A DNA stretch of 56,836 nucleotides from a virus (Duplodnaviria > Caudoviricetes), in the IMG/VR virus record IMGVR_UViG_3300037147_000155, positions 1 through 56,836 of that record. One strand, given 5' to 3'. The position numbers were made by a program, and so were the translations under genes. The notes under the pieces are model-generated. The model had not been told where the DNA came from, made no database searches, and saw only the letters and a program-made list of their open reading frames with translations. Every line of letters begins with the position of its first letter. The first letter of the stretch is position 1. Below are positions 22,469 through 44,622 of this stretch, in pieces.

Positions 22469-25400
22469 ATGAAGTGGACAATCAGCATCATCTTGACACT
22501 CATAGCGCTGCTGACCATGGCTCAGTCGGCCACGGCCCAGGCTGGCTACACGACCGTCACCGGCACCGTGGTCGATGCCAACTCAGTTCCCTACGTGGCT
22601 GGCAACTACAACGTGACCTTCGTCAACACGACCGGACAACAGGCGATGTTTCAGGGCAGCGTTCTCAACCAGACAACCTTCAGCGGCAAGTTGACCTCTA
22701 CCGCCACCTTCTCGATCGTGCTGCCAGCGAACTCCGGTGCGGGCGCTATTAGCCCGCTGGGCACGCAATGGAACTTCAGCTTTACCGCCAGCGACGGCGG
22801 CTCCCCCTTCAACATCAACGCGACCATCACTGGCTCCACTCAGTCGCTCAGCACTGCAATCGCCGCTGCCGCGCCCATTCTCACCTTCACTATCGGCGGA
22901 CCAAGCGGCGAGCCAATCCCCGTCGGCCCCTCCGCTGACTGCCCCGCATCGAATGGCACCTTGAGTTACTGGATTCCCTGTGCGGGTGGCGGTCCTCCAA
23001 CTGGGGCCGCCGGGGGCGTATTGGCTGGTACATATCCCAACCCCACCTGTTCAACATGCGCCATTACCGCGAATCCACTTTCCCAATTCGCACCCACAAC
23101 CTCAGCCCAGCTTCGAGGTGTACTCAGCGATGAGACCGGAACAGGCGCAGCCGTCTTCGGAACCTCGCCAACTCTAATCACTCCTGCTCTTGGCACTCCT
23201 ACTGCATTAGTTCTAACAAGCGCGACGGGATTGCCCCTGTCTACCGGAGTGGTCGGTCAATTGCCAATCGGCAGCGTAGGCAGCGCGGGTTTGAGTGGGA
23301 CATCTCCCATCGCGATTGCTTCTACCGGTGTGATTAGTTGCACCACTTGCGGAGTGATCACGGTACCGGTGGGAGCTGATCCTTCGGGCGCAACTGATTC
23401 TCGCGTTGCTTTACAGGCGGCACTGACCATAGGGGCAACCACACCTTATCCGGCAGTATTTATCCCGGCAGGAAGCTACATAGTCTCTTCGCCAGGCCTA
23501 AGCTGCCCGTCAAGTTCCTGCAAGATATTTGGCTCAGGCGGTAACACTACCTCAATCCAGGCCAGCGCCAGCGGCTACAACACACTGGTAATTGGAGGAC
23601 CATACGTCTCGCAAAACCCGTCAGGATGGACAAAGGACATCGCAGTTAGCGGCTCCGGAAGGCCAGGTTCGATAACTGGGGTTTCAGCACTCCAACTCAA
23701 TGATGTGCAGAACTACCGCATCGAAAATGTCAGCCTCTATAACGACGACATCGGGCTTGACCTCATAAATAATTGCTACGGGCTTCTTGCCGAGAATATT
23801 CGCGGAGGTGGTGGAAGTCTAAATGTCGGCATCAACCTCCGCACGGGATCACAATCGGGATCGGACCTTGTTTTTAACAGCGTATGGGTGGAAGGGATAT
23901 TCGCAGGTGTGTCTATATCCCCCGGTGGAGGAGGATATCACTTCTATGGTGGGCAGCTTGGCACAGATCTAAACTTCGGTTCCGCGAACGACCTTGCCGG
24001 GACCGTCGTCATGGGCAAGGACTACATCACAGGGTCTACGGCTGGCGGCGGGACAAGCGCCAATTTCGATGGAACGAGCTTTGAGGGCACCAACTACGCC
24101 TGGGTGTTCCGTGCGTACGGATCTGCTTATCTCTTTACCAATGAAATCGCCATGAACCCATCGAACGCCAGCTATCCCGCCATTGGCGTCTACAAGAACA
24201 CCACCTTCGGCACGGGCCAGCTTGAGATGCGCGGCAGCTCAATCAGTGGCGCATGGGCTAACACGAATACCGGCGGGGCCTTGATAGTCGTATCCGGAGT
24301 GACGCAAAGCCTCAATCCCTATCCAATCATCGAAGAGGGGACAATCGTAACTGGGAGCACGCCATATATAAATGGGGTTGCCACGAATATATCTTCGATC
24401 ACCGACCAATCGGGCGTGCAGCAATACGCTACTTCTCACAGTGGCCAAGGCATCGAACATAATGGCCTTCTTTTTAGGAATAACGGCGGGGTTCTACAGA
24501 CATCCTTGAACCAGGGAGGTACTTGGGGCAACGTTCCGCAGCTAACAACTATCGGTGACGTGGGCTACGGAGGCTCTTCGGGAACTCCCACACGCCTTCC
24601 AGGAAACACCACGAACACCGATCAAGTTCTAGTCTCACACGGCACGGGCGGCGCGGCAGCAGCACCTACCACGAAAACATGCGTCTCTGGAACAGGAGGA
24701 GCGGGAACTTCCACCACGTGCACCTGGAGTACTCCGCCACAAGCAGGAGAGTTCGTTGCCATCGCGGTCAACAACTTCACCTCGGCTACCTACACGGTGA
24801 CGGACTCCGCAGCCAACTCTTATAGCGCGTATGGCAGTGTTCACAGTTCAGCCTCAACCGGCTACACGCAAACATTTTACTTCGGCCCCCTCGCCGCGCC
24901 CATCACCACCACGACGGTGACGGCGACTGCGGGCAGCTATTTGAACATAGCTGGGCAGACAGCCGCAAACATTGCAACCTCTTCGCCGACAGATGGGCAA
25001 GGCACGATAGACGCGACTGGAACGGCGAATGTTCCCCCGAACGGTTATTCTCCGATCACACTGGGATCCCCGATCACGACCACTGTAAATGGCGACTATA
25101 TTTTCTGCCCCACCTATGGACAATATCTCAGCGCACTTTCTCCAGGAGTTGGTTTCACTCAAGGTTCGCAATTAGGGAATATGTACTATCCCCTAGAAAC
25201 TAATTCTTTATCGCAGTATCTAGTGCAAGCGACAGCAGGGGCTATCACTCCAAGCATGATAGGCACGCAGGGGCTCATATCCACAATGACTTGCAGCGCG
25301 TTCAAGTCTGCCGGGGGATCAGTGGGAGGGGGAACTGCGGCAGCTCCTTATCTAACGAGCACTCCAAGTTTCGCCAAGGTTCTTACTGCCTCAAATTGTT

Positions 25401-25696
25401 CTAACTCAGCTTCTCCAGCGGTATGTGGCTCGGCAGCATCGGGTAGCGTAGCTCTCCCGACAGGAACTAATCCGACTCTCGTTGTAAACTCGACTGCTGT
25501 CACAGCCAACAGCCAGATCATGCTCACTGTGGATGAGAGCCTAGGGACCAAGCTGAGCGTCACCTGCAATACAACGCTATCCACCTTGCTCAACCCAGTA
25601 GTCACAGCGCGCACGGCGGCTACTAGCTTCACTTTCACGATTGGCGCGATCATCGCCACCAACCCAGCATGTGTCAGCTACACGATCATAAACTGA
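22469..25696 (+). CDS. Signal-peptide-bearing tailspike/fibre-like protein with pectate-lyase-type beta-helix
   Basis: MKWTISIILTLIALLTMAQSATA-Q signal; GADPSGATDSRVALQAAL...VFIPAGSY beta-helix cap. Confidence 0.75.
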   Translation: MKWTISIILTLIALLTMAQSATAQAGYTTVTGTVVDANSVPYVAGNYNVTFVNTTGQQAMFQGSVLNQTTFSGKLTSTATFSIVLPANSGAGAISPLGTQWNFSFTASDGGSPFNINATITGSTQSLSTAIAAAAPILTFTIGGPSGEPIPVGPSADCPASNGTLSYWIPCAGGGPPTGAAGGVLAGTYPNPTCSTCAITANPLSQFAPTTSAQLRGVLSDETGTGAAVFGTSPTLITPALGTPTALVLTSATGLPLSTGVVGQLPIGSVGSAGLSGTSPIAIASTGVISCTTCGVITVPVGADPSGATDSRVALQAALTIGATTPYPAVFIPAGSYIVSSPGLSCPSSSCKIFGSGGNTTSIQASASGYNTLVIGGPYVSQNPSGWTKDIAVSGSGRPGSITGVSALQLNDVQNYRIENVSLYNDDIGLDLINNCYGLLAENIRGGGGSLNVGINLRTGSQSGSDLVFNSVWVEGIFAGVSISPGGGGYHFYGGQLGTDLNFGSANDLAGTVVMGKDYITGSTAGGGTSANFDGTSFEGTNYAWVFRAYGSAYLFTNEIAMNPSNASYPAIGVYKNTTFGTGQLEMRGSSISGAWANTNTGGALIVVSGVTQSLNPYPIIEEGTIVTGSTPYINGVATNISSITDQSGVQQYATSHSGQGIEHNGLLFRNNGGVLQTSLNQGGTWGNVPQLTTIGDVGYGGSSGTPTRLPGNTTNTDQVLVSHGTGGAAAAPTTKTCVSGTGGAGTSTTCTWSTPPQAGEFVAIAVNNFTSATYTVTDSAANSYSAYGSVHSSASTGYTQTFYFGPLAAPITTTTVTATAGSYLNIAGQTAANIATSSPTDGQGTIDATGTANVPPNGYSPITLGSPITTTVNGDYIFCPTYGQYLSALSPGVGFTQGSQLGNMYYPLETNSLSQYLVQATAGAITPSMIGTQGLISTMTCSAFKSAGGSVGGGTAAAPYLTSTPSFAKVLTASNCSNSASPAVCGSAASGSVALPTGTNPTLVVNSTAVTANSQIMLTVDESLGTKLSVTCNTTLSTLLNPVVTARTAATSFTFTIGAIIATNPACVSYTIIN

Positions 25697-25707
25697 TGAG
25701 GGTCAGG

Positions 25708-27777
25708 ATGATTAGACGATTACTATGGCTGATGTTGTTGGGGCTGCTGAGCAGCCTGCCCACGTTGGCCCAACAGGGATTCACTGTTGTCAGTGGCACG
25801 GTCGTGGACAGCAATGGATCAGTCTACTCCAACGCTACCTTCAATGTGGGATTCGTGAATCCAGGCACCCCAGCAGGTGTGCTGCCCCTGCTCAACGGCT
25901 CCACGTTTCAGCAACAATATGTGGGAGTAGTCACCGACTCCTTCGGGCGCTTCTCGCTGGCCATCCCCGACAACAATGTGATCGCCCTCTCGGGGGCGCT
26001 GAACACGCAATGGAACTTTAGTTTCTGCAGCGTGCTATACCCGGCACCCAACCAAAAATACTGCTTCAACACGAACTTGACGATCACCGGCCCGACGATG
26101 AATATCAGTACTCAATTGACTGCTGCAGCGGCGATCTTGCCCCCTATAGGAGGCGGTGCGACATTGGCCTTCTTATATACGCAGGCCACCCCTGCAACTA
26201 GCTGGGAAATCGTCCACAACTTGAATACGCCCTCGGTGACGTTTGATTGTTTCGATGCGAACCAGCAATACGTGGTACCAGACACGGTCACTAACACCAA
26301 TGTAAACACTTTGATGGTAACCTTCACTGTGGCGCAAGCAGGAACCTGCATAGTGTTAGGCGCTGGAGCCGCCAGCTCAACGAGTGGAGGAGGTGGCGCT
26401 ACCCTGACAGCCACGCAAAACGGTTTCGGTTCATCCGGGAACGCATTGACTGGCGACCCTACCTACACATTCAATTCCACCACAAAAAATGAACAAGTAC
26501 CTTCAATCAACCAAACTATCTACATCGACGGCGTGAAATATCCGCAATCCGACATTGGGGCCGGGATTAATGCTGCTTACGCTGCGCTCCCGGCGAATGG
26601 CGGAACAATCATCATTCCCGCAAGCGCTACCTGCTACCAAACATCGACGGCCATGAACTTTGCGACCGAAGGCAAGTTCCCCCTTATCGTTTCTTCCCCT
26701 GGCGGATCAGCCTGCATCCAGTGGACCTCGACAACTGGCACGGCGATAACTTTCAACTCAGGAGAAGGCGTTCTCGCTACTCACCCGCGAGCATTCGGAT
26801 TGCGCGATATTGAACTTGTAGGACCGAACGGAAGCACGGGACCCACGAACATTTGCACGTCCCTTTCAGGCGTGACAGCGACAGCACTTCTACTCGGTGG
26901 CACGAATGGAGCAGAAGGATTTGGCGCTTACGGAATCAACATCAATTGCTTTGGGACGGGCGTGACCTACGGGAACAATACCTGGGGCACACTGTTCAAA
27001 CACGGCACGATCCGCAACAACACAAAAGACCTGAACATTACGGGCTCCCTCTCGAACACAGGCGAGCAACTAGCCTTCGATGAAATCTCCTGGATTTACG
27101 ACCTGGCATCAGCCCCGGCCTGCGTAGTGAACATGAATCCTACCGGGATCACACTCGAAACCGAGTTCGTAAATAACTCGTTCGATGGCGCGGAATTCTG
27201 CCCTCTCGGCATCTCTCACCTGATCAATCCGCACTTTGAGAATCCAGGGAACAATATGACGTTCCCGTTCATCGTGAACTCGGCCAACCTGGAGATTTTA
27301 GGCGGAACATTCCTTGAGGACTACACTTCGACATTTGTACCCAACGAGTACATCGCCAACACGGGAAATAACGCCGTCCTGCTCCTGCATGGGTTCAACG
27401 CCTACGCTGGATCGGTGCTCAGCTACTTCGTGGGCGATGCCAATAACGCTGTAACCAATATCGATGGGCTGATGACCGGCACGTTTTCTTGGTCCGCGTG
27501 GATCAACCATACCGGAACGGGAACCTGTCTGATTGACGGTTACGGTACCGCATCTGGGGTCGGAGACTTCTACTCTTGCCAGCCGATAATCTTCCGAGGA
27601 GGCATCCAGCTCAATAATCCCGTGACTACTCTCCCATCAGCAAGTGCAGCTAATACAGGGCAGGTGATGACAGTTAGTAATTCAACCACCGTGGTAACTG
27701 AAGGACAGGTATGTGCGCTCAGCGGTTCTAGTTTTGCTATCGCTATATCTACTGGTTCCGTATGGAAATGCTTCTAA
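25708..27777 (+). CDS. Signal-peptide-bearing tailspike-like beta-helix protein
   Basis: MIRRLLWLMLLGLLSSLPTLA-Q signal; N-domain paralogous to 22469; DIGAGINAAYAALPANGGTIII cap; WEIVHNLN motif. Confidence 0.75.
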   Translation: MIRRLLWLMLLGLLSSLPTLAQQGFTVVSGTVVDSNGSVYSNATFNVGFVNPGTPAGVLPLLNGSTFQQQYVGVVTDSFGRFSLAIPDNNVIALSGALNTQWNFSFCSVLYPAPNQKYCFNTNLTITGPTMNISTQLTAAAAILPPIGGGATLAFLYTQATPATSWEIVHNLNTPSVTFDCFDANQQYVVPDTVTNTNVNTLMVTFTVAQAGTCIVLGAGAASSTSGGGGATLTATQNGFGSSGNALTGDPTYTFNSTTKNEQVPSINQTIYIDGVKYPQSDIGAGINAAYAALPANGGTIIIPASATCYQTSTAMNFATEGKFPLIVSSPGGSACIQWTSTTGTAITFNSGEGVLATHPRAFGLRDIELVGPNGSTGPTNICTSLSGVTATALLLGGTNGAEGFGAYGININCFGTGVTYGNNTWGTLFKHGTIRNNTKDLNITGSLSNTGEQLAFDEISWIYDLASAPACVVNMNPTGITLETEFVNNSFDGAEFCPLGISHLINPHFENPGNNMTFPFIVNSANLEILGGTFLEDYTSTFVPNEYIANTGNNAVLLLHGFNAYAGSVLSYFVGDANNAVTNIDGLMTGTFSWSAWINHTGTGTCLIDGYGTASGVGDFYSCQPIIFRGGIQLNNPVTTLPSASAANTGQVMTVSNSTTVVTEGQVCALSGSSFAIAISTGSVWKCF

Positions 27778-27801
27778 TTCCATACGTTGATTGAGGCGGC
27801 T

Positions 27802-28740
27802 ATGATTAAACGATCCTTGATACTGTTGACGCTAATCATTGGCCTGACTCTGACCGCTCAGGCGCAGACCGCTGGTACGCAAGTTGGCCGGGTGTCTTTA
27901 ACCCAAGGAGCGTCGGTAAGTCAGCAAGGATACATAGCTGGAGGCTCAATCATTCTTGGTCAGCTTGTCACCATCAATTCATCGGGGCAGGTAATCGCCG
28001 CGACGACTTCCACAACCGATGGGGTCATCGGCGTCGCCAAGAATAGTGGGACAACCTCACAGCCAGTAGATGTAGCCCTAATCGGGCAGGTAGCTGCCTT
28101 ATCAGATGGTACCTGCTCACAAGGTCAACTACTGCAAATTTCCATTATCTCTGCTGGGCGTGTTAACTGTACACCGTCTATCATCAATCAGCAAATCGGT
28201 ATAAGCGATTCCAGCGTAGCTGGACCGGGAAATATCACCGCGGTATTGACAGGTGGCGGGTCGTCTGGCAGCAGTGGTGGCGCGAACACGACGCTATCGA
28301 ACCTCGGCACGACGGCTCTTAACGCCGATCTGATGTGCGCCACCGCAGGGAGCTGCAACCTTGGATCCGCCGCGGATCCAGTCAACGGAGTCTACTTGAA
28401 ATTCTTCCAGCTGAATACTCCAGGGGCGCTGATACTCGGCTACCCTGGTCCCTGCGCTGCCCCCGGCCCCAGCCAAATCGGCTCATGTTTTGGCGACTCC
28501 AATGGGGCGATCGATGATTGGGATGGCTATTCGGCTACCTTTAGGCCTCACGCGCTGGCGCTCGTGCCGGGCACCTTCGCGGCCTTGAGCGCTGAGTATC
28601 CCTGTCCTGGCTCGGAAGGGCAAGGGGGTTCAGTAACCGACTCGACCACGAACACATGGGGGGCGACAGTAGTCGGCGGCGGGGCGGATCATGTTCTGGC
28701 GTACTGTGACGGCAGCGCTTGGACTGTCGCGGCTAAATAA
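27802..28740 (+). CDS. Signal-peptide-bearing protein with capsid-cement (DUF2190-like) domain and fibre-type C-terminus
   Basis: MIKRSLILLTLIIGLTLTAQA-Q signal; GQLVTI...VIGVA...VDVALIG; VTDST...GGG..VLAYCDGSAW. Confidence 0.65.
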   Translation: MIKRSLILLTLIIGLTLTAQAQTAGTQVGRVSLTQGASVSQQGYIAGGSIILGQLVTINSSGQVIAATTSTTDGVIGVAKNSGTTSQPVDVALIGQVAALSDGTCSQGQLLQISIISAGRVNCTPSIINQQIGISDSSVAGPGNITAVLTGGGSSGSSGGANTTLSNLGTTALNADLMCATAGSCNLGSAADPVNGVYLKFFQLNTPGALILGYPGPCAAPGPSQIGSCFGDSNGAIDDWDGYSATFRPHALALVPGTFAALSAEYPCPGSEGQGGSVTDSTTNTWGATVVGGGADHVLAYCDGSAWTVAAK

Positions 28741-29245
28741 TATGACGCCAACTAATACGAAGCCTGATCTGAGAAATACTTTGCTTGTTGACGCCAAATC
28801 GTTGCGCCAAAACTTTCCCTGGCTCAATACTCTGCCTTATTTCGCGTACGGCTTCTTCCGTGAGTCTAGAGTTTCCACAAGTTTCCCCCCGCGGCATCTT
28901 CCCATTGCGATAAGCGTGCATCCAGTTTTCACGGCTAGTCATGTACTCCAAGTTTGCAGGCCAGCGATTATCTGTCTTCTTGCCATTCTTGTGATTGGCA
29001 GTATGTCCATCTGGGCACACCCCTACGAAACTTCCCATCACAAGAGAGTGAACTTTACGGTACGCGGTTTTTCCAGCGGCACTCAGGTGAACTACTTTGT
29101 ACCCATAGAAATCAATAGTGGGATTCAGAATCTTCCCAACATGGGTATGCGGACCTGGTGCTATCCTTCGTACGCGGCCTCTGTCAGAAACTTGGTAGTA
29201 ATCATCAAAGCCAAAAACTGGAAGCCATTTTTCGGAGTTACCCAT
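28733..29245 (-). mobile_element. NUMOD4-HNH homing endonuclease inserted antisense
   Basis: EKWLPVFGFDDYYQVSDRGRVR (NUMOD4); NHKNGKKTDN..ANLEY; C-terminal HTH. Confidence 0.9.
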
Positions 29246-29286
29246 AAGGATCTATTGTATCACACAAAATGGACGGTGGCTGCGAA

Positions 29287-32200
29287 ATGATGAAGCGACT
29301 TTTGACATTGCTGACCTTACTGTTCGGCCTGACCTGGACGGCCAACGCTCAATTTACCTGTCCACCCTCGTGTGCCCGGCTGACCTCCAACGCGACCAAC
29401 AGCATCGTTCCGCAGGGTGGATTTGGGTCGGCGTTCCGCGCTTATGTGTACGGTAAGACCTTTCAGGCTCCCAATGCGGTCAATGCCGTCACCTGGAGCA
29501 TCTCAGTAGGCACCCTCCCTGCTGGCCTGACCCTGGGTGCGTCCACCAGCAATACGGCCACGATCGTAGGCACCCCAACCGGCACCGGATCGTCGGCATT
29601 CACCTTAAAGGGAGTCGATAGCATTGGGCAGATATTCCTGCTGCCCACCACGATTACTGTCTATGTGTCCACTGGAGTGTCGGTGACGCCAACGGGCCAG
29701 AGCATCAAGACCGGGGCGACCCTGCAACTTACCGCCCTCAGCCTAGAGTCAGACTCCATCACCACTCTCCAAATATCGTCGATCGCTACATGGGCATGTA
29801 GTGGGACCGGCTACTCATCGATCTCCATGAGCGGCCTGTTCACCGCCAGCGGCTCGACTGGTTCGCCATCCTGCACGGCGGCGTTCGATAGCCAGACCAG
29901 CGCGGGGGTCACCATCACCATTGGCTCATCTGTCCCGACGATCACCAACTCAGCCACATTGCCAGCGCCATGCGATATAAATTTTCCATGCCCAGGATTG
30001 CAGCTGAATGCCACGGGAGGCGTAACTCTTCCTTACGTGTGGACTATTACCAGCGGAGCACCTGCGGGATGCACAACCTCGGTATCTTCGACAGGCTTCT
30101 ATGCCTGCACGCCAACGACGGCGACGACATATTCTAGTTTCATCATTCAAGTTTGCGACAGCGCGGGCTCACCGAATTGCACCTCAAAGACTTTCACTCA
30201 GGTGGTCGGGTCGCTCTCTTCCATCGCGGTTACAGGGATGGCTTCCATCTCAGTTAATGGGAGCACTCAGCTAACCGCGACCGGGACATATAGCGGCGCT
30301 GGCACGCACGATATTACCATTGGCACTGGTGGTGGCACGGTCGCATGGACCTACATCCGAGGTAATAACGTCATTAATTCCTCGACGACCACCGCAGTCG
30401 TACCGCTCAACAATGTCGTCGCTGGTGACACGATTATTTGCGCCCCCATCTACGTTAACGGCGCGGGGTCCGGTCAAACGCTTACGAGCGTGAAGGACCA
30501 AGCAGCGGCAGCCTTCACTGCTACCACGCATTCGCCAACAACTTTTCTCGCAAGCGTTGGGCAAGCGTGGATGTACTACCAACTCAGCGCGGCAGGCGGC
30601 AACGAGACATTCACTGGAACGTGGTCAACTGTTGGAGCAGCCTTCGGAATGGGATGCGACGAATTTAGGGCCTCGGGAGGAACGCCAGCATATGACGTGG
30701 ACGCCGCGCAATCCTCCGGAGCGTCGGGTACCGCCAACACTGGCCTAACCATCACGCCAGCCGGAGCAGGCAAACTCATCTATGCCGTGGACGTGCCTGT
30801 GAACGCGATCACCGCTGCGGGCGCTCCGTTTACCCTTGGCTCAGGTGGATTCTTCGATGCGGCGGCAACAGAATACTTACTCAGTTCAGTAGCGGGCGCG
30901 AACTCGATCAACTTCGCACAGGCTCCAGCAGGGGCTTATGCGGCAATCGAAGCGGCATTCAGCGTCACGCCAACCAGCGGAGGAGTGGGCACCGTATGGA
31001 CGGCTACTACACTAACCGGCAATGCGCCGTGCTCAGTGAATGGGAGTGGGCTCGTACAAGGGCTAAGTGCTGGGACTTGCAGCGCGAAGGCCGCGGTGGG
31101 TGCGGTAAACGGCACGCTCACTGTCACCGTGACAGCGCCGACCGACACGACCATAACGGTCGCTCCACCCACAGGGTCTCAACTAATTGGAGGACAGTTT
31201 ACATTCTCTGCAACCGGCAATCCCAGCGGCACGATAGACACTGGCGCACCGACCGTCTGGTCATCGAGCAGTCCATCTACCCTATCGATGGTAGGTAATA
31301 TAGGAACGTGTAAGGCTGCTGGGTCGGCAGTGATTACTGCTACCGTGAACTCCAACCTAAGCGGCTCTACCAATGCTCTTACAAATAACCCCATCATTTG
31401 CGTCACGGCGGTCGCGGGGGGCGGGAACCTTTCCAACTGTGTCGTTACCGGCAGTACTCCCACCTCTACCGCGAGTGTGACGGGATGCGCTAATTCCTGG
31501 CCTCCTGCTGGATGGACTCTGGTTATTGCAGATGGAGCGAATGGAGCGCAGCCATCAAATGTAGCCCTCGCGGGCATAACGAAAAAGCTTCCATTCGGTC
31601 ACTCTGGGGCTAATTCCTATGGACTTAATTTAACTGGTAACGGATCGGAAGCTGGCTGGTATGTCAGCGGATCATCCCTCACAACTTTCAGCCAGGTGGA
31701 TATTTCCTATTGGGAATATGACGACAGCAACGCGATGTATGCGAACTCGGATTACTACCTAGTTTCACTTCGCAGCAACTTGGCGTGCTCTGGGCAAGGC
31801 CAAGCTGTCGGCATAAACGCCCAACTCTACAATGTTCCCGTAAATACTGCTTCAGTTCTCAAGGGAGCGTTCTTCTCATCTCCCGTACTGGGAAACCCAG
31901 CCAACAATGCGTGTCAAGGGGCGATCTGGCAGCAGGGTTTCAATATGGGCATCAATGCGGGAGTGTGGCGACAGTACGAATTTCTGATTATCCCTAACAC
32001 GACCGAAACGGGAGGGCAAGTTTTCCCTCCGCCGAATTGCAACAACCTAAGTCCTTCGACCATCGGATGCGGAAATGGAACGATGACGGTGTGGGTAAAT
32101 GGCGTGCAGGTCGTCACTTACCTCAACGCTAATTTGCAAGGGACTCAGACTCTCGGGAGCAATTCTGATACGGCAGTGGAAGTTGGCGGCGTCATGTCAT

Positions 32201-32343
32201 CATTTTCCAACATGAATTTTACTACACCTTGCAACTCATGGAGCGCCACCGGAGGTGGTTCGTGTCCCGGAACTCAGCCAGGCACAGGCGCTCCGCAACC
32301 ATTCCATCGTTATCTTGCCGACATCGTGGTTATCAAGCAATGA
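29287..32343 (+). CDS. Exported Ig-repeat (He_PIG/Big-like) adhesin-like protein with lectin-like C-terminal domain
   Basis: MMKRLLTLLTLLFGLTWTANA-Q signal; TWSISVGTLPAGLTL, LQLTA, VWSSSSPS Ig repeats; many Cys pairs. Confidence 0.75.
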   Translation: MMKRLLTLLTLLFGLTWTANAQFTCPPSCARLTSNATNSIVPQGGFGSAFRAYVYGKTFQAPNAVNAVTWSISVGTLPAGLTLGASTSNTATIVGTPTGTGSSAFTLKGVDSIGQIFLLPTTITVYVSTGVSVTPTGQSIKTGATLQLTALSLESDSITTLQISSIATWACSGTGYSSISMSGLFTASGSTGSPSCTAAFDSQTSAGVTITIGSSVPTITNSATLPAPCDINFPCPGLQLNATGGVTLPYVWTITSGAPAGCTTSVSSTGFYACTPTTATTYSSFIIQVCDSAGSPNCTSKTFTQVVGSLSSIAVTGMASISVNGSTQLTATGTYSGAGTHDITIGTGGGTVAWTYIRGNNVINSSTTTAVVPLNNVVAGDTIICAPIYVNGAGSGQTLTSVKDQAAAAFTATTHSPTTFLASVGQAWMYYQLSAAGGNETFTGTWSTVGAAFGMGCDEFRASGGTPAYDVDAAQSSGASGTANTGLTITPAGAGKLIYAVDVPVNAITAAGAPFTLGSGGFFDAAATEYLLSSVAGANSINFAQAPAGAYAAIEAAFSVTPTSGGVGTVWTATTLTGNAPCSVNGSGLVQGLSAGTCSAKAAVGAVNGTLTVTVTAPTDTTITVAPPTGSQLIGGQFTFSATGNPSGTIDTGAPTVWSSSSPSTLSMVGNIGTCKAAGSAVITATVNSNLSGSTNALTNNPIICVTAVAGGGNLSNCVVTGSTPTSTASVTGCANSWPPAGWTLVIADGANGAQPSNVALAGITKKLPFGHSGANSYGLNLTGNGSEAGWYVSGSSLTTFSQVDISYWEYDDSNAMYANSDYYLVSLRSNLACSGQGQAVGINAQLYNVPVNTASVLKGAFFSSPVLGNPANNACQGAIWQQGFNMGINAGVWRQYEFLIIPNTTETGGQVFPPPNCNNLSPSTIGCGNGTMTVWVNGVQVVTYLNANLQGTQTLGSNSDTAVEVGGVMSSFSNMNFTTPCNSWSATGGGSCPGTQPGTGAPQPFHRYLADIVVIKQ

Positions 32344-33620
32344 GAACTCTACTCCTAATCCTTCTCTGCGTCGCTCCGTTGCGAGCGCAGACTGGCACCC
32401 CGGCAAGTTTCTTCTCAATGACCATGAACACTCAGGGGCACGAAACGATACTCCCTATCGGTGGCCTGCGTCTTTGGGATACGTCCGCTACGTGGCCCTC
32501 GATAGAAACGGCTAACGGGACTTACAGTTACACCACGCTCGATGCGTGGTTGGCCGAGGCGCAGATGCTGAACGCGGATGTTACGTTCACTGTGGGCGGT
32601 CAAACGCCACCTTGGGCCATAACTGGTAGCTGCACGGGGACATACTCAGGCTCCTCTCCCAAAGGCTGCGCTCAAGTACCGTCCGATATCGGTTCAGGTG
32701 ACAACATCTGGAAAGCGTTCATTACTGCGTTGGTAAAACATTCTCTCGCATCCTCGACAGCGCACATCAAGTTTTATGAATGTTGGAACGAACCGGACCT
32801 GACAGGGACTTTCGCTGGCACCGTCCCGCAGCTCGTTACTCTCTGCCACGACCTCTACACGACCGTCCATGCACTCGACCCTAACGCCTTGGTGATTGGT
32901 CCGTCTCCATCCACCGGATGTACGAACAACTGCGGCATTCACACTCTGCCTACATACTATGCCTACGGTGGTGCTCCCTACGAAGACATCGTGGGAATGC
33001 ACGCATACATGTACCAATTCCAGACCACGCCAGAGCCAATTTCCAACATCGTCACTCAGCTCCAGACGCTGATGACCGCCAATGGCATTGGCGCGTTACC
33101 GATATTTTTCACCGAGGGCAACGAAGGCAACTCGACCCAAGCTCCGATCAGCACTATGACCGATGCTCAGAAGGTCGCCTATCTGATGCGCGAATACTTA
33201 TTGATGTGGATGGTCCCGCAAGTTCAGCGGTACTACTGGTACGCTTGGGACAACGCGAACTACGGGACTTTGTACAGCAATGGCGCACTGACGCAAGCGG
33301 GCATTGCCTACAAAACGCTGCAAAGCTGGCTGGTCGGCTCGACGCATCCCGCGAACCAGTGTAGCAAGGATAGCAATGGGACATGGTCCTGCACGCTGAT
33401 CTACCAGGGCAATCCAGCGCTGATCCTGTGGAACCAGACGACCACGCCAAGCACGCCAGTCCCAGAGACGTTCGCTCATGTGCTCTCGTATACCGGTACT
33501 AGGAGTGCCATCGTCGCGAACGCGGTCACTGCTGGCCCGATTCCGCAGATGGCTGTCCCTGATAGCTGGATATGGAATTGCACCGGTGCCCAAACTTTTA
33601 TTTGCACGGGTAAGACATGA
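32340..33620 (+). CDS. Exported clan GH-A glycoside hydrolase (GH39/GH5-like)
   Basis: MRTLLLILLCVAPLRA-Q signal; LRLWD, YECWNEPD acid/base, IFFTEG nucleophile, RYYWYAWD. Confidence 0.8.
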   Translation: MRTLLLILLCVAPLRAQTGTPASFFSMTMNTQGHETILPIGGLRLWDTSATWPSIETANGTYSYTTLDAWLAEAQMLNADVTFTVGGQTPPWAITGSCTGTYSGSSPKGCAQVPSDIGSGDNIWKAFITALVKHSLASSTAHIKFYECWNEPDLTGTFAGTVPQLVTLCHDLYTTVHALDPNALVIGPSPSTGCTNNCGIHTLPTYYAYGGAPYEDIVGMHAYMYQFQTTPEPISNIVTQLQTLMTANGIGALPIFFTEGNEGNSTQAPISTMTDAQKVAYLMREYLLMWMVPQVQRYYWYAWDNANYGTLYSNGALTQAGIAYKTLQSWLVGSTHPANQCSKDSNGTWSCTLIYQGNPALILWNQTTTPSTPVPETFAHVLSYTGTRSAIVANAVTAGPIPQMAVPDSWIWNCTGAQTFICTGKT

Positions 33621-35284
33621 TGAGATTATTGTCCCTACTTCTCCTGTTCGCGCTTCCCGCGAGCGCTGCGAATTCCGTCTACATCGCGCAGACCGCCGCT
33701 GGAGGCAACACGGGGGCAGATTGCCTGGACGCGAAGCCGGTCATCTACTTCAACACTTCGGGAAACTGGAGCGCGACGCCTACAGGCATTCAGATCGGCC
33801 CTGGCACGGCTGTCCATCTCTGCGGCACGTTCACCGGGACCGCTGGCAGTACGATGCTGACCGTTCAAGGATCGGGAGCGAGCAATAATCCGGTTACGAT
33901 TATCTTCGAGGCGAACGCCCAGTTGAGCGCTCCCTACTGGGGCTCAAGTAATTTTACAGGCTCCGGCGCGGCAATTGTTTGCAGCAACTTCAATTACATC
34001 ACGGTAAACGGCGGGGTTAACGGCTTGATAGCCAACACGGCCAACGGCACTGTCTTAGCCAACCAGGCGGGCACTACGGCAGTAAACTTCTCCGGATGTA
34101 ACCACGTCACGATCACCCACCTCAACGTCTCGAATATGTACGTCAAAACATCAGCCAGCGATGAAGGTCAGAGTGGTGGTGGTGCGACCGGAATTGCTGT
34201 TGGCAGTGCGGACTTCCTGACGATCACGAACAACGTAGTCAAGCAGGTGCGCGACGGTATCGATGTGGGCTATATCACGCTAACGTCCGCCACGATCACA
34301 GGCAACACGGTCGATTATGGCTGCCATCTCGTAACGGTGGGCGACATTCTTGGGAACAGCACCGCTTCAGGAGTAGTCCTTAGCAACAACACGATTGGGC
34401 CGCATCAGTCGATCTGGGGCGACCCGTCGCAGAACTGCCACGGCGACGGGTTCATACTTTCAGCATTCAATTCTGGATCAGTATGGTCGAATTCTACAAT
34501 CTCCAATAACAACTTCTCGTCTGACATGTGTGCCCTTGGTGGGAATTGCACCGCACCGCTATTCCTCACGGGAGACTTCTCGAACATCGCGATATACAAC
34601 AACGTGCTCAGTTATGTGAACGCTGGAAGCGGTAACGGCGGCGGTGAATCGCTGATCCGCATGGGCGTGGGAAGCTACACGGGCGCGCAGATGACCAATA
34701 TGGGCATCTACAACAACACGTTCACTGGACTAGCCGCCCCTGGGATCAAGATAGACGCCGATCCAACTCCAGGATTCATCGTCAAGAACAATATTTTCGT
34801 TAACATGTCTCCCGCGTTGCTGGAAAATCCGACGAACAACCTAGACTGGGCGGCCAGCGATTATAACGATTTTTATAATTCGACCGTTGCCGCGAACGGC
34901 TCATTCTCGGGTATGGTGACGAACTACAATACGCTGGCAAGTTGGCAAGTTGCCACAATCTCCGCATCAGCACATCCCGATCCAGACAGCATTACCGGCA
35001 ATCCTCTGCTGAACTCAGCCTTCATCCCCCAGCCAGGGTCGGCGGCCATTGCGGCAGCCTTGAACTTGACCAGCTTATCGATCGCAGCACTCGACAGCGA
35101 CAAGAGCGGCCGCGCACGGCCAGCCAGCACAGCTTGGGACATCGGAGCATTCAGCACCACCGGCATCGTCACGCCTCCGCCTAACAATTGGGTCTGGAAG
35201 GGGACCATCGTCACGCCCATGACCATTAGCTGCGTTTGCAATGGAGTTATTCAGTTTTGCAATTGCGTGCTCGTGCAGCCATGA
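33617..35284 (+). CDS. Exported right-handed parallel beta-helix protein (lyase-like)
   Basis: MMRLLSLLLLFALPASA-A signal; ITNN/IYNN Asn ladders; C-terminal G.P...D..G..R....WDIGA motif. Confidence 0.8.
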   Translation: MMRLLSLLLLFALPASAANSVYIAQTAAGGNTGADCLDAKPVIYFNTSGNWSATPTGIQIGPGTAVHLCGTFTGTAGSTMLTVQGSGASNNPVTIIFEANAQLSAPYWGSSNFTGSGAAIVCSNFNYITVNGGVNGLIANTANGTVLANQAGTTAVNFSGCNHVTITHLNVSNMYVKTSASDEGQSGGGATGIAVGSADFLTITNNVVKQVRDGIDVGYITLTSATITGNTVDYGCHLVTVGDILGNSTASGVVLSNNTIGPHQSIWGDPSQNCHGDGFILSAFNSGSVWSNSTISNNNFSSDMCALGGNCTAPLFLTGDFSNIAIYNNVLSYVNAGSGNGGGESLIRMGVGSYTGAQMTNMGIYNNTFTGLAAPGIKIDADPTPGFIVKNNIFVNMSPALLENPTNNLDWAASDYNDFYNSTVAANGSFSGMVTNYNTLASWQVATISASAHPDPDSITGNPLLNSAFIPQPGSAAIAAALNLTSLSIAALDSDKSGRARPASTAWDIGAFSTTGIVTPPPNNWVWKGTIVTPMTISCVCNGVIQFCNCVLVQP

Positions 35285-35641: not shown

Positions 35642-35980
35642 ATGGCACATTTCGTCGCTGCAGTCGAGCCTACGCTGGTAGCATTTCTGACCTTGGTGAT
35701 CCCAGCCCTTGGACTATGGATCGTTAATCAGCTGAACGCCAATCATGCGGCTACTGTCGCTGCAGCGAAGGAGTCAACCACAGCGGTTGCTGCGGTCAGC
35801 CAGAAGGTGGATAGCATCGATACCAAGGCGAGTAGCATCGTCCATGCGACCGATGGCATCAACACCGGCCTCAGGGAGACCATTGCAGCGCAGCAAACGA
35901 CCGCCGAGCACCTGGCTGTCGTCAATAACTATCGGGCTCAGATCGCAGAATTGACTAAGAAGGTCAACGGAGGGACATAA
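35642..35980 (+). CDS. Membrane-anchored coiled-coil protein (holin/spanin-like)
   Basis: GAGGAG RBS; one N-terminal TM then coiled coil; start of lysis region. Confidence 0.55.
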   Translation: MAHFVAAVEPTLVAFLTLVIPALGLWIVNQLNANHAATVAAAKESTTAVAAVSQKVDSIDTKASSIVHATDGINTGLRETIAAQQTTAEHLAVVNNYRAQIAELTKKVNGGT

Positions 35981-37070: not shown

Positions 37071-37676
37071 ATGGCTATCACTCGCAGACAGTTCGCAGGG
37101 CATCTAGTCAGAGGGGGGATGGTCATCGCAGCCGGGGGCAGCCTGTTCATCATCGAGGGCTGCAATGCGGCCAGTGTGTTCGCATCCATCCAAGTCTGGA
37201 TCCCCGTAGGCGAGAAGGCGTTCGCTGGCATAGTCACCCTCGTAGGGCCATTTTTGCCGCCTGGCACGGCTGCCATTGTGACGCTGGTGAATGCGTCCCT
37301 GACTGCCCTCGGCGACGTGATCGCAGAGTACATGGCCGCCAGCGCTGCGGCGAAGTCGACCTTGCTAGGCAAGATCCAGACTGCCCTCACCGCGGTCAGC
37401 GATAATATCTCCAATTTCCTCGCCGCCCTGAACCTTAGCGGCAATCCTCTCATTGCGGTCATCAGCGGCCTGGCGCAGATCATTCTGTCCACCATTGCAG
37501 CATTCATGGCTGCCCTGCCCGCACCAGTAGCGGGTGCGATGACAATCAAGAAGTCATTTGTGCTCAGCGGGGTCACGTTCCCCATCGTGCCTAAGATGCG
37601 AACGGTGGCTCAATTCAAGGCGTCCTATAACGCCATCGCGGACGCGAATAATCATCCTGAGGTCGACCTCCAGTGA
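37071..37676 (+). CDS. Twin-arginine (Tat) lipoprotein
   Basis: ITRRQF twin-Arg motif, hydrophobic core, IEG-C lipobox-like site. Confidence 0.65.
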   Translation: MAITRRQFAGHLVRGGMVIAAGGSLFIIEGCNAASVFASIQVWIPVGEKAFAGIVTLVGPFLPPGTAAIVTLVNASLTALGDVIAEYMAASAAAKSTLLGKIQTALTAVSDNISNFLAALNLSGNPLIAVISGLAQIILSTIAAFMAALPAPVAGAMTIKKSFVLSGVTFPIVPKMRTVAQFKASYNAIADANNHPEVDLQ

Positions 37677-38434
37677 TCGATCGCAGGCTAGGCAAGCTAC
37701 CGCCGCGGTGGGATCGCAGGACGCTGAAGATGGCGCGTTTTCTCACTCCTGCGTTGACTCCACCTCCTCCAGCAGTCTATTGGTCAAAGGGATTCCCATC
37801 GTGGGGAATGTATCTCAACGACCAATTAGGTGACTGTACTATTGCAGCAATTGCCCACGCGATACAAACATGGAAGATCAATCTAGGCCACAATGTCAAT
37901 CTAGCTAAAGTAAGCCCCCTTAGTTCAGCAATTCTCTCGGCCTATGAGGACTGGTGCGGCTACGTTGACGGTGATCCTTCAACTGACAACGGCGGTGTGG
38001 AACTCGATGTGTTGAACAACTGGAGGAAACTTGGTCTCGGGGGCACTGATCGTATTCTAGCCTATGCTGACCCCGCTCCCGCGGATGTGCTGCACATTAA
38101 GCAGGCTGTCACACTGTTCGGCGGGGTTTATTTGGGCTTCAACGTGCCGCAATCCGCGATGGATCAAAATGCAGCTGGCCTACCATGGACTGTCGTTCCC
38201 GATGACGGAGGCATCGTTGGAGGTCATGCCATTTGGTGTCCTGATTACAACCCTACGTACCTCTATTGCATAACATGGGGACAACGTCAGGCGCTTTCGT
38301 GGGAATTTTTTCTCAAGTACACAGATGAAGCCCACGCTTTACTATCTCCAGACTGGATAAACTCTAGCAACTTCGCGCCGAATGGAGTGGATTTGGCCCA
38401 ACTGCAAGCTGACCTTCAAGGAGTGATCTCGTAG
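37673..38434 (+). CDS. Papain-like (C1-type) cysteine peptidase
   Basis: NDQLGDCTIAA catalytic Cys; GGHAI His; ITWG. Confidence 0.8.
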   Translation: MIDRRLGKLPPRWDRRTLKMARFLTPALTPPPPAVYWSKGFPSWGMYLNDQLGDCTIAAIAHAIQTWKINLGHNVNLAKVSPLSSAILSAYEDWCGYVDGDPSTDNGGVELDVLNNWRKLGLGGTDRILAYADPAPADVLHIKQAVTLFGGVYLGFNVPQSAMDQNAAGLPWTVVPDDGGIVGGHAIWCPDYNPTYLYCITWGQRQALSWEFFLKYTDEAHALLSPDWINSSNFAPNGVDLAQLQADLQGVIS

Positions 38435-38908
38435 ATGCCTCCTCTTAGAGACTTGAGTGGAATGAGATTCGGACTACTCCAACCCATGTGGCCCGCTGGG
38501 CATTTTAGCAAGTATCATAAGGTTATGTGGCTTTGCCAGTGCAGCGAAGGGAATCTCACCGTTGTATCCGCTGGAAACCTTTGTAACGGCCAAGTACTTT
38601 CCTGTGGATGTCTTCACGCGAACGCTGCCAAGAACCGTCATTTTATGGGAGGGATGAAACTCCCAGAACGCAGACTCTATTGGGCTGCCAAGGAGCGCTG
38701 CGGGAATCCACATAACAAGAGCTACAAGGATTATGGGGGCAGAGGTATCGAGTTTCGATTCAAGTCATTCGAGGAGTTTTACAAAGAACTCGGACCACGC
38801 CCCGCCCCACACCTGACTATTGACCGCATCGACAACGATGGTCATTACGAACCCGGCAACGTCCACTGGGCTACGCGCCTTGAGCAGCGGCATAACAGAA
38901 GGTCCTAG
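38435..38908 (+). mobile_element. HNH homing endonuclease
   Basis: WLCQCSEG, SCGC, YGGRGI, TIDRIDNDGHYEPGNVHWAT. Confidence 0.9.
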
Positions 38909-39147: not shown

Positions 39148-39332
39148 TGATTCTGCCCCTGCTGCCAGTTGGTGCCAGCCTCCAGCCTGTGGACCTTAGT
39201 CTGCAGATCGACCACCTGTTGCTGCAACACCTTGATGGCCTGATGCAGCAGCCCATCGCTGTGATTGAGCTGCTCGCAGACCTTGACGAGATCTCGTAGG
39301 GGCTCATTTACTGTTGCGTATCCTTCAGCCAT
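39144..39332 (-). CDS. Small coiled-coil protein
   Basis: Overlaps end of polymerase; heptad pattern. Confidence 0.5.
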   Translation of the reverse strand: MAEGYATVNEPLRDLVKVCEQLNHSDGLLHQAIKVLQQQVVDLQTKVHRLEAGTNWQQGQNQ

Positions 39333-40590
39333 TCCACACCTCCATTCCAGTTGGATTTGAATCAGACCTTGGAGCCCAGTTGCCCCCGACTGCGCTCATG
39401 GATATCTCCGCGCCCACGCTCAGGCCACCCAGCTCGGGGATGGGCATGGTGAATATGCGCTGCAGGGTCGCTGCGGCCGCTGCAGCCTCGCTCTGGGGGA
39501 CATAACTCAACAGGTCGTCATGGACCGGCAGAACGCACCAGGAGGCCAGCGGGGTCTGCCACAGAGCCTCGATGTAGACATCCTGGATCGCCGAGGCCGT
39601 GCTCTGAGGCAGGAACGCTATGGCCCTCTTGGCGTCGTCGCCATTGGGCTCCCACCCTTGAGTCCTGCGATTGTAGTTGAACACATGGAAGAATCTGTGC
39701 CGGAAGCCAAAGGGATTCAGCAGGGAGCGATTAGGCGGGCCAGCCATGGTCAGCACCTGCCTCCACCAGCGCACGATGTCTTGGCCGGGCTCGGACGCCA
39801 AGTACACGTTCTGCAGCCTCCGTGCGTGGGCCACCGACTCGAAATCATCGGGGTACTCCTCGAACATCCGCTCGGGGGTGCCGCGATAGTTACTAAGATG
39901 CACAACTCTTTTAGCTGTCTCGCGGCTGGGCTTGTCGTAACGATGCTTGGCTTCTTGGCAGGCTGTCCTCAATGCTGCATCATCGAGGTGAAGATCAATC
40001 GCCTCATTATGGACCACGCTATTAAACCAGTCGTGAACGCCAGCCTTGGCCAGCGCGATGTATCGAGGGGACTGAGCGAAGTAGCCTACTAGGACTGCCT
40101 CGATCGCTGAGCTGTCACAAGCCATGATGACGTGGCCGGGCGGGGCGATGACCATCCTACGAAACTCGTCTGCGAGAGCCGACCTCTTAGGAATATTTTG
40201 GGCGTTTATGTTCCGGCAGGATTTCCTCCACGTACTCGGATGGTGCCCGATCGTGTAGTGGATGCGATTGTTTGCATCCAACTTCCACTTATAGGTCGAG
40301 ATCATCTTCCAGCGTTCCTTGCACGCGAGTACTTTCGCGAAGACGGGATACTTGCGGGCCGCCTTGAGCAGGAACTTTTTTTCTGTTGAGAGCGCGTTCT
40401 CATCATCGCTGTCTTTACGATGAGGGAGTCGCACGTTGAAGTGAGCCGCCAACGATTGAACTTCTAAATAGCTATCGGGATTGAAGTCGCAGACCTTGAC
40501 ATATTTGTTGGGCAAGGGAGGACGTTTGGCGCGAGGCTTCTTCACTGGGGCGCTGTCCAGCTCAGTCAGCAGGGTATCGATGTCAGACAA
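39325..40590 (-). CDS. polA: Family A DNA polymerase, polymerase domain (split gene, TTG start)
   Basis: NAQNIPKR; motif A DSSAIE; motif B RETAKRVVHLSNY; FLPQST; motif C VHDD. Confidence 0.9.
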   Translation of the reverse strand: MSDIDTLLTELDSAPVKKPRAKRPPLPNKYVKVCDFNPDSYLEVQSLAAHFNVRLPHRKDSDDENALSTEKKFLLKAARKYPVFAKVLACKERWKMISTYKWKLDANNRIHYTIGHHPSTWRKSCRNINAQNIPKRSALADEFRRMVIAPPGHVIMACDSSAIEAVLVGYFAQSPRYIALAKAGVHDWFNSVVHNEAIDLHLDDAALRTACQEAKHRYDKPSRETAKRVVHLSNYRGTPERMFEEYPDDFESVAHARRLQNVYLASEPGQDIVRWWRQVLTMAGPPNRSLLNPFGFRHRFFHVFNYNRRTQGWEPNGDDAKRAIAFLPQSTASAIQDVYIEALWQTPLASWCVLPVHDDLLSYVPQSEAAAAAATLQRIFTMPIPELGGLSVGAEISMSAVGGNWAPRSDSNPTGMEVWNG

Positions 40591-41938: not shown

Positions 41939-42384
41939 TTGAGGCCCCCATGAGGGCAGTACCCATAGAATCCCAGAGACATATTGCAGTTGTGGCACAA
42001 CACACGAAATCCTCCCCGCTTTTCACGAAGCAGCCGTCCAACATATCCAGCTCCACTAGCTACAGACTTTCTATGTTGCTTTCCCCCACCATTAACGTGA
42101 TCGATAGCCATGAACTCAAAAGTGGCCTCACCACAGCAGGCGCACTTGCCGCCATACATCTCGATCATCTTTTTTCGATTAGACTGCCGCAATTTAGACA
42201 GCTTGCTAAGGTGAGCAACGTACTTAATAGGGTCATTGCGGATAGATAGGTAATACTGGCTCTTTTTAGCCTTACCCGCAACGCTACGACTCCATTTTAG
42301 CTTGTGAGCGTTCAATCGGAAGTGATTCTCTCGATAGTACTTCTTCGACCATGCACGCCTCTTCTCTGGAGTGTTATGGGGCAT
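41935..42384 (-). mobile_element. HNH homing endonuclease (same type as 11719)
   Basis: YGGKCACCGE...AIDHVNGGG...VLCHNCN...CPH. Confidence 0.85.
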
Positions 42385-44253: not shown

Positions 44254-44622
44254 TTATGTCTCCTTGGGAGCCGCTCTCCATTTCCCCGGTTTCGCAGGTT
44301 CAATTCCTGATTTCAGGATGTAATGACAAGCGGCGCATGTAATCCAACCTTCGTCCTTCATCGACACTTCAAATGAGGTACCCTCGCCACATCGGGGACA
44401 GGGATATGAACAACTGTTAATGACCAAAAACTGACGGAACGTAAGCTGATTCGTAGGAGTGGGCGCTATGTTCCCGCCTGCCATCGCCCACCACTCCGCG
44501 AATTCAACAAACAGATGGATGTTGGAATAGGTTCGCCAATCCCTGCCAGTTTCCTCGCAAAACGACTGCCATTGTCCCTGCTCGCTTACGTCCTCTGGCT
44601 TGCTCGCTCGCTCATCGGTCAT
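44254..44622 (-). CDS. Zn-ribbon hypothetical protein
   Basis: CPRCG...CAAC; AAGGAG RBS. Confidence 0.5.
   Translation of the reverse strand: MTDERASKPEDVSEQGQWQSFCEETGRDWRTYSNIHLFVEFAEWWAMAGGNIAPTPTNQLTFRQFLVINSCSYPCPRCGEGTSFEVSMKDEGWITCAACHYILKSGIEPAKPGKWRAAPKET

Follow-up and report, generated by a model that had tools for sequence, protein, structure and literature searches.

The 56,836-bp virus record IMGVR_UViG_3300037147_000155 (Duplodnaviria; Caudoviricetes) was analysed whole and is called the window here. Six consecutive large open reading frames (ORFs), A to F, occupy 22469–35284 on its plus strand, a block of 12.8 kb or 22% of the genome, and sequence analysis confirmed Sec-type signal peptides at well-supported starts in all six. 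Gene A (22469–25696, 1075 amino acids (aa)) consists of a leader at residues 1–23, an N-terminal β-sandwich at about 24–150, a tail-fibre repeat at about 190–330, a further body and a Cys-bearing C-terminal domain. Gene B (25696–27777) encodes 693 aa, or 689 aa if translation begins at the ATG at 25708, with a leader (1–25), an N-terminal domain of the same family as that of A, a small domain at 158–222 and a right-handed β-helix at 272–615. In gene C (27802–28740, 312 aa), a leader (1–21) and a β-rich N-terminal part are joined by a Gly/Ser linker to a C-terminal part that contains Cys. Gene D (29287–32343, 1018 aa) has a leader (1–21) and Ig-like repeats, and the Pfam matches of its C-terminal part are all below threshold. 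In gene E (32340–33620, 426 aa) the leader (1–16) is followed by a probable glycoside hydrolase (GH) of clan GH-A, and in gene F (33617–35284, 555 aa) the leader (1–17) is followed directly by a parallel β-helix family motif, without an N-terminal anchor domain.

Leaders were called with our own heuristic, which looks for a basic n-region, a hydrophobic run and agreement with the −3/−1 rule. All six N-termini have one to four basic residues and a net charge of +1 to +4 before the hydrophobic run, and the h-region is uncharged, 8–12 residues long, with a mean Kyte-Doolittle value of 2.24–2.88. Under the −3/−1 rule the cleavage sites of A to F are predicted at ATA/Q, TLA/Q, AQA/Q, ANA/Q, LRA/Q and ASA/A, so that Gln stands at +1 in five of the six (A to E) and Ala in F. 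AlphaFold modelled residues 2–24 of A and 4–16 of B as an N-terminal helix. A Shine-Dalgarno motif lies upstream of A (AAGGGAG) and of C (GAGG), and stop/start overlaps join A to B (TGATG), D to E and E to F (both ATGA). GAGG also precedes the alternative ATG of B at 25708, four codons later and still upstream of the leader, and B may start there. The possibility that the true starts lie downstream of the leaders was rejected, because these overlaps and Shine-Dalgarno motifs fix the annotated starts and no clear Shine-Dalgarno motif was found at in-frame ATG, GTG or TTG codons within 70 codons downstream of the leaders. Weak GTGG or GGGA strings precede three downstream GTG codons, in A and B only. 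When the same heuristic was applied to all ORFs of at least 90 aa, it flagged the six genes of the block and seven others. Six of these seven are internal starts of larger ORFs or ORFs overlapping larger genes, and the seventh is the ORF at 44619–45125 on the minus strand; the heuristic failed to flag a Tat-type lipoprotein at 37071–37676, which was found by eye. Given about eight exported proteins among about 62 genes (an approximate gene count), the chance of a run of six is about 3e-5.

The six mature proteins contain 85 Cys in 3947 residues (2.15%), compared with 131 in 11097 (1.18%) in 39 other ORFs (Fisher p = 2e-5) and 18 in 4247 (0.42%) in the virion module, which comprises twelve ORFs between the portal gene and position 22455. 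Mature Cys counts from A to F are 17, 14, 8, 24, 10 and 12, even in five of six. A first-pass annotation, made from the sequence alone, had described six large plus-strand ORFs that begin with a basic-hydrophobic-AxA-type signal, followed by Gln in five, and that are rich in Cys; all of this was borne out. The parity of the Cys counts was then compared across two families, the one defined by the N-terminal domain common to A and B (the N-domain, described below) and the one defined by the fibre repeat of A. In the N-domain family, the mature Cys count is even in 111 of the 128 non-zero cases among leader-bearing members (binomial p = 4e-18; stable on trimming 20–30 residues) and in 1 of 7 non-zero cases among the leaderless members (n = 10). 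Among fibre-repeat proteins it is even in 22 of 26 leader-bearing and in 30 of 59 leaderless members. Median Cys content is 1.76% with a leader and 0.38% without one in the N-domain family, and 1.0% and 0.16%, respectively, in the fibre-repeat family. Leader presence thus tracks high and even Cys counts across two families, which speaks for genuine export with disulfide formation. The combination of a leader with paired cysteines is expected of proteins that fold in an oxidising compartment. The earlier proposal that the proteins are exported and disulfide-bonded in the periplasm is therefore well supported, though by computation only, the leaders being kept in homologues as well.

A and B are 24% identical over 748 columns and have in common the N-domain of about 125 residues directly after the leader. 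A HMMER search of 1.84 billion representatives found this domain in 234 proteins at E ≤ 1e-3. It begins at about residue 20–30 in nearly all of them, and the proteins, which range from about 100 to about 1200 residues apart from one of 5653, differ in their later parts. By our heuristic, 133 of the 149 other members listed bear a leader, and about ten leaderless members begin exactly at the position of the mature end. A small-x-small-Gln motif is present in 126 of 148 N-domain proteins, compared with 15 of 120 proteins of the F family. The N-domain of A, folded separately with AlphaFold (pLDDT 89.7), was modelled as a transthyretin-like β-sandwich, and Foldseek returned no match for it at E ≤ 1e-3.

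Beyond the N-domain, A and B resemble different phage appendages. The fibre repeat of A occurs in 1422 proteins at E ≤ 1e-3, the best matches being 46–85% identical over about 45–160 residues. Peptidase_S74, Mtd_N or Collar domains are present in some of the proteins that share it. Of the 120 proteins listed, 88 lack a leader, and many of these have N-termini of the classic tail-fibre type. A tblastn search with A gave a match annotated as 'tail fiber protein' in the phage record MW202697.1, and the last 109 residues of A are 64% identical to the C-terminus of a leader-bearing 1519-aa protein of a sister phage, L082. In B, PHROG matches cover residues 158–222, and the core at 272–615 was modelled as a right-handed parallel β-helix (pLDDT mostly 70–96), with low confidence for the N-terminal 270 and the last 60 residues when the whole protein was folded. 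The best Foldseek matches of the core are phage tailspikes, namely K2-2 TSP (8iq9, E 9e-7), then Sf6 (4urr), CBA120 and Acinetobacter phage spikes. Many of the 39 matches at E ≤ 1e-3 are tailspikes, and the bacterial proteins AlgE4 and RbmB ranked lower. Sequence searches against PDB chains gave 0 matches for A and B, and Pfam, PHROGs and NCBIfam gave no name for A, nor for most of B.

The same three databases left C without a family (in Pfam even at E ≤ 10) and most of D unnamed. For C, an Atlas search gave a structural lead, below threshold, to Phage_cement_2/DUF2190 clusters. D has a Big_2 match at 621–689 (4.5e-5) and a weak 3keto-disac_hyd match at 876–950 (E 0.16, below the cut-off), and it is 58% identical over 1007 residues to a leader- and anchor-bearing 1211-aa protein of L082. 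The first-pass annotation had also listed virion-type modules in the block. The tail-fibre repeat of A and the tailspike-like β-helix of B stood up, and the capsid-cement likeness of C is reduced to the below-threshold lead. It had further seen no signal-less fibre gene elsewhere in the genome; in our scan neither Pfam nor PHROGs gave a fibre or spike candidate among the other ORFs scanned, which is weak negative evidence.

E and F have their relatives in bacteria. E matches GH39 (9e-4; 18.6 bits against a cut-off of 26) and GH5 (1.5e-3; 18.6 against 23.5), both under the Pfam gathering cut-offs, and is probably a GH-A-like glycoside hydrolase. Homologues of E with up to 44% identity were found in 38 of 401 genomes of the class Terriglobia (37 of 400 without one unpublished genome). 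At the corresponding place (9831–9998, against 32304–33620 in the window), all that is left of E in L082 is 42 residues from its start and 23 from its end, so that E is an insertion/deletion cassette between D and F, dispensable in the sister phage. F belongs to a family of parallel β-helix proteins of about 520 residues, with 286 homologues covering 90–97% of the query, of which 104 of the 120 listed are leader-bearing by the heuristic. The family alignment has 25 invariant columns. Mature F begins with the family motif ('NSVYIAQ...'; 'YIAQ...GxDC'), which leaves no room for an anchor domain. PF13229/PF05048 matches are precomputed on some homologues, F itself has no Pfam family at E ≤ 0.01, and a sequence search against PDB chains gave one spurious match (E 0.02). 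A scan in which each species was represented by a single genome gave 101 pattern matches, 95 of them relatives; 79 loci were kept, of which about 63 carry Acidobacteriota names, as counted from record titles. In both of the two loci scanned with Pfam (L007 and L023, of the 79), the F homologue lies in a polysaccharide cluster, where it follows a polysaccharide deacetylase among genes for a priming transferase (Bac_transf), an aminotransferase (DegT) and a glycosyltransferase (GT2). A UDP-Glc dehydrogenase is present in L007 only, and a Wzx-type flippase directly follows the F homologue in L023 only. By ORF sizes, eight of nine F loci look like one plus-strand operon. E and F look like enzymes captured, leader included, from the periplasmic machinery that the host lineage uses for its exopolysaccharide (EPS). 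The host is probably a member of Terriglobia (Acidobacteria), because F, E and the N-domain have matches there, the N-domain in 6 of the 401 genomes of the class. In five Acidobacteriota genomes the N-domain profile also gave nine weak matches, in frames of 282–1237 aa (five of more than 1100 aa), which were discarded since they look like an unrelated combination of a leader and a carboxypeptidase-regulatory-type domain.

The arrangement recurs in other phages and loci. In L082, in which F is 97% identical in DNA and D partly 86%, the same slot holds the leader-bearing 1519-aa and 1211-aa proteins and an F-like protein, and the leader of F differs by one hydrophobic substitution. In the viral contigs L001 and L002, two to three fibre-like genes with leaders stand side by side, and one of those in L001 carries the N-domain of A and B. 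Genes of this kind, two to three per locus, also adjoin endolysin-type genes at L112 and L113, two chromosomal loci of Terriglobia, the second of which has a small terminase gene as well. The cultured podovirus Tunturi_1 (PP887698), whose host is Tunturiibacter psychrotolerans X5P2, has leader-bearing gp12, 13, 14, 16 and 17 by the same heuristic, between the tail protein gp11 and the endolysin gp21. Its four large leader-bearing proteins contain 20, 10, 21 and 32 Cys; one protein of the run is annotated as 'tail spike protein' and one as 'virion structural protein'. Tunturi_1 shows no sequence similarity to the phage studied here beyond a weak terminase match, and the term 'signal peptide' is absent from the main text of the paper describing the Tunturi phages (PMC11924767). 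As a separate observation, the siphovirus-like or myovirus-like prophages L114 and L115 (Terriglobia genomes G171 and G153) encode a protein of about 770 aa that has a leader and a start resembling a carboxypeptidase-regulatory domain; by ORF order its gene lies between head-completion genes and a possible tail-tube gene.

Upstream of the block are a large terminase (4348–6072), a P22-type portal (7044–8753), a major head protein (12254–13237), two FN3-bearing virion proteins of 417 aa (13809–15062) and 858 aa (15778–18354) on the plus strand, and four Cys-poor proteins of unknown function that extend to 22455. Short lysis-type genes lie downstream, and a split family-A DNA polymerase and other replication genes lie on the strand opposite to the block. 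No tRNA genes were found in the genome. The relatives of the major capsid protein in 50,697 phage records are all distant (24–25% identity) and belong to Mx8, Mx9, and Stenotrophomonas and Bradyrhizobium phages; scans of viral contigs with the upstream 474-aa protein and with the whole of A gave no relatives. The 417-aa and 858-aa proteins have a common N-terminal segment, 'GGT(I/L)P(L/I)GTYY', and in the 858-aa protein the Fn3-like stretch adjoining it matches 3mpc (E 6e-5); sequence searches of the two proteins against PDB chains gave only this Fn3-like match or nothing. The segment and the Fn3-like stretch are exposed domains on the putative adaptor and nozzle. Four homing-endonuclease-type genes are scattered among the structural genes: an HNH/endonuclease VII-type gene (11719–12243, plus strand), a GIY-YIG gene with NUMOD3 (15059–15787, plus strand), an HNH homing-endonuclease-type gene (38435–38908, plus strand) and, between C and D, an HNH/NUMOD4 gene on the minus strand (28733–29245; PF07463 2.6e-11, PF13392 1e-8, phrog_59 2.8e-34). 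The last of these is outside the exported set, although it stands inside the block, and was absent from the first-pass annotation.

Several of the genes beyond F have features of their own. The 112-aa product of 35642–35980 (plus strand) begins with a single membrane helix and continues into a long polar tail prone to helix formation, is 36% identical to an L082 protein at the same place, and is more like an i-spanin than a holin. The 201-aa product of 37071–37676 (plus strand) has an N-terminal twin-arginine motif and a lipobox (MAITRRQF...IIEGC) as well as further hydrophobic stretches, and is probably a Tat-exported lipoprotein. Directly after it, 37673–38434 (plus strand) encodes a 253-aa phrog_19005 protein. 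This pair is kept in L082 (77% and 71% identity) and in the viral contig L002 (30% and 35%), and may be part of the lysis system. On the minus strand, 44619–45125 encodes 168 aa with a lipoprotein-like leader MRPLATILLLTLCGC and 11 Cys (6.5%), without a PHROG or NCBIfam family. The DNA polymerase of family A (39325–41998, minus strand) is apparently split, the DNA_pol_A domain lying in 39325–40590 and a uracil-DNA-glycosylase-superfamily domain in the adjoining 40583–41998. Farther along the minus strand (52282–53878), a ThiF/E1-like gene (53234–53878) adjoins a JAB-domain gene (52282–53247), which looks like a ubiquitin-like conjugation pair in a phage.

B shares its right-handed parallel β-helix core with the tailspike depolymerases of podoviruses (K2-2 TSP 8iq9, Sf6 4urr/2vbk and the CBA120 TSPs), and its gene, like theirs, follows internal-protein genes and precedes lysis genes. 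Those spikes are not known to have a signal peptide; they bind the particle through an N-terminal domain of another type and fold in the cytoplasm. B differs from them in its Sec leader, its 14 Cys and the transthyretin-like fold of its N-terminal domain. A likewise shares its repeat with canonical tail fibres, whose leaderless members have the low Cys content given above, but A bears a leader and has 1.6% Cys. Tunturi_1 is comparable as an acidobacterial podovirus with a run of large, leader-bearing, Cys-rich proteins. Signal-peptide and signal-arrest-release endolysins, spanins and inovirus coat proteins are phage proteins exported by Sec. Endolysins and spanins are lysis proteins, however, and inovirus coats belong to filamentous phages assembled at the membrane, so none of them is an appendage of a tailed phage. 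PslG, a GH39 enzyme, and AlgL are exported glycanases encoded in EPS operons; E matches GH39 and GH5 only weakly.

The nearest items in print are the MAT fibres of Bdellovibrio bacteriovorus, EPS enzymes of the WceF type and a note on Porphyromonas gingivalis phages. MAT fibres are described as having a leader, a conserved β-rich domain of about 130 aa and a phage-like fibre (PMC10769870), an architecture like that of A and B. In that description they are bacterial proteins on the surface of the predator or on a vesicle, whereas the genes studied here stand in a phage late operon. WceF of Pantoea stewartii is, by the title of PMC7949094, a bacterial glycan biofilm-modifying enzyme with a tailspike-like fold. 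The cellular relatives of F are likewise leader-bearing β-helix proteins in EPS clusters; WceF, PslG and AlgL are host genes regulating the host's own polymer, whereas E and F are phage-borne and in a late operon. The survey of P. gingivalis phages notes genes with leaders for signal peptidase I and an N-terminal Gln, following the Q rule of Bacteroidetes, from which its authors infer use of host secretion (PMC10367356). Those are five genes of unknown function that are not called fibres, whereas here the whole fibre/spike slot is concerned, in a phage of another host phylum. A literature search, with subscription journals and supplements outside its reach, gave no description of Sec leaders on the fibres or spikes of tailed phages.

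We propose that the block is the glycan-recognition and glycan-cutting module of the phage, whose products would be true substrates of Sec. Within the infected cell, which probably belongs to Terriglobia, the six proteins would cross the inner membrane, lose their leaders and fold with disulfides in the periplasm, and five of the six would bear an N-terminal Gln after cleavage. A and B, and perhaps C and D, would be phage-specific fibre and spike proteins, built from a leader, the N-domain and then variable fibre, β-helix and tip modules, and would serve as receptor-binding and depolymerase appendages. They would meet particles built without fibres in the cytoplasm, and dock on them through the N-domain, once the downstream lysis proteins breach the inner membrane. 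E and F would be free enzymes without an anchor that cut the host EPS from within, before and at lysis. Tailed-phage virion proteins are, by textbook knowledge, assembled in the cytoplasm. P22 heads can be 'tailed' by purified tailspike in vitro, and late docking is therefore physically plausible. The first-pass annotation had left two fates for the exported proteins, addition to particles at lysis or remodelling of the infected cell's surface or EPS. Our data do not decide between them: the build of A and B fits the first, and the anchorless EPS-type enzymes E and F fit the second. We give just short of an even chance to this division, in which all six proteins are exported and acquire disulfides, A and B (with C and D perhaps) are added late as appendages, and E and F act as free periplasmic EPS glycanases.

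Several points weigh against this proposal. Virion membership, proposed for A and B and perhaps for C and D, is a prediction from sequence, the leader calls come from our heuristic and not from SignalP, and A has an odd number of Cys (17). For the N-domain, the N-terminal part of the cyanophage A-1(L) neck fibre scores best (Z 8.9), on a par with carboxypeptidase-regulatory-type domains (Z 8.4); so generic a fold says little by itself about tail anchoring. The first fibre gene of L082 has two possible readings, one with a leader and one from an ATG that gives a leaderless fibre of the classic type, and a conventional fibre may thus coexist with the exported set in that phage. Leaders are present in 0 of 15 tail-region proteins of Tunturi_3 and 0 of 12 of Tunturi_4 in the first 50 kb of each genome, and these proteins are Cys-poor. 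Tunturi_3 infects the host strain of Tunturi_1, and the siphovirus Tunturi_4 infects another Tunturiibacter species. The idea that the host imposes the trait was rejected on the same grounds.

It is also possible, with a real but clearly minority chance, that none of the six proteins is part of the virion and that all are exported effectors acting on the envelope and matrix of the infected cell. They might be free periplasmic or released depolymerases, or fibres displayed on the cell surface through the N-domain, as in Bdellovibrio MAT. Their roles might include stripping of EPS, capsule or O-antigen to free progeny, blocking of re-adsorption and superinfection, or adhesion to neighbouring hosts, and the receptor binder would then be another tail protein, such as the FN3-bearing 417-aa or 858-aa protein. 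MAT fibres, which combine a leader, an N-terminal domain and a phage-like fibre, are described as cell-surface organelles (PMC10769870), and this speaks against addition of A and B to particles. In the same direction, the authors of the P. gingivalis phage survey take leader-bearing Q-rule phage proteins to modify the surface of the host (PMC10367356). The enzymes E and F are of host type, F has its family motif directly after the leader without an anchor domain, E is missing from the sister phage, and Ig-like repeats such as those of D are a usual feature of proteins that bacteria secrete. Lysis-type genes adjoin the block here and in L082, L112, L113 and Tunturi_1, which fits a shared role in 'envelope demolition'. 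However, it would be unusual for a podovirus to have neither fibre nor spike, and no leaderless candidate was found by Pfam or PHROGs among the other ORFs scanned. A and B also combine a conserved N-terminal part with a variable C-terminal part and, in A, a bona fide tail-fibre repeat. Leaderless members of the N-domain family start exactly at the mature end, as expected for interchangeable virion parts, and 12.8 kb would be large for a set of accessory enzymes.

A further reading keeps the virion pool in the cytoplasm. The leaders would be weak or retained, or would be bypassed, for instance if trimers fold faster than Sec can export them; only a fraction of the protein would be exported as free enzyme, and the cysteines would oxidise after release. 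We consider this unlikely. It agrees with textbook cytoplasmic assembly, large trimeric β-helices are poor post-translational Sec substrates, and there is an in-frame Met inside the leader of A (codon 17) and of B (codon 13). Disulfides can also form after release, as reported for the tail of Milano phage (title of PMC10811340), a point that also weighs against folding in the periplasm as we propose it. Yet no Shine-Dalgarno motif accompanies the internal Met codons of A and B, and codons of this kind are absent from C to F. The sister phage retains the leaders, that of F with a single hydrophobic substitution, and leaders track even, high Cys counts across hundreds of proteins whose leaderless relatives are Cys-poor, which would be unexpected if export were incidental. 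That the leaders are an artefact of mis-called starts or chance hydrophobic N-termini is very improbable: the heuristic does flag a few non-genes too, but overlaps and Shine-Dalgarno motifs fix the starts, six leaders stand in a row, and they are kept in homologues.

The proposed division into late-added appendages and free glycanases may extend beyond this phage. There may be a widespread class of tailed soil phages, represented here by a podovirus of Acidobacteria, whose host-recognition apparatus is built by Sec export and oxidative folding, most of its appendages bearing an N-terminal Gln, and docks on fibre-less particles at lysis, in which case the morphogenesis of tailed phages would not be purely cytoplasmic; we place this somewhat short of an even chance. 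The separation of phage-specific fibres from host-derived enzymes of EPS clusters, the family-wide test of Cys parity and the natural control pair of Tunturi_1 and Tunturi_3 are new here. The question is directly testable, because cultured Tunturi_1 shows the trait and Tunturi_3, on the same host strain, does not. Prediction of receptor-binding proteins from genomes currently assumes that leader-bearing proteins are not part of the virion, and depolymerases of this kind may need oxidative folding on expression. Whichever fate applies, the trait bears on the ecology of phages in EPS-rich soil bacteria. The link of F to the EPS clusters of the host points to a way in which phages may come by matrix-specific enzymes. 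If the proposal is true, the periplasm as a compartment and lysis as a timing step would join the virion assembly of tailed phages; alternatively, these genes would reveal a large class of fibre-like effectors, hitherto unrecognised, which phages export and which act on the matrix of the host.

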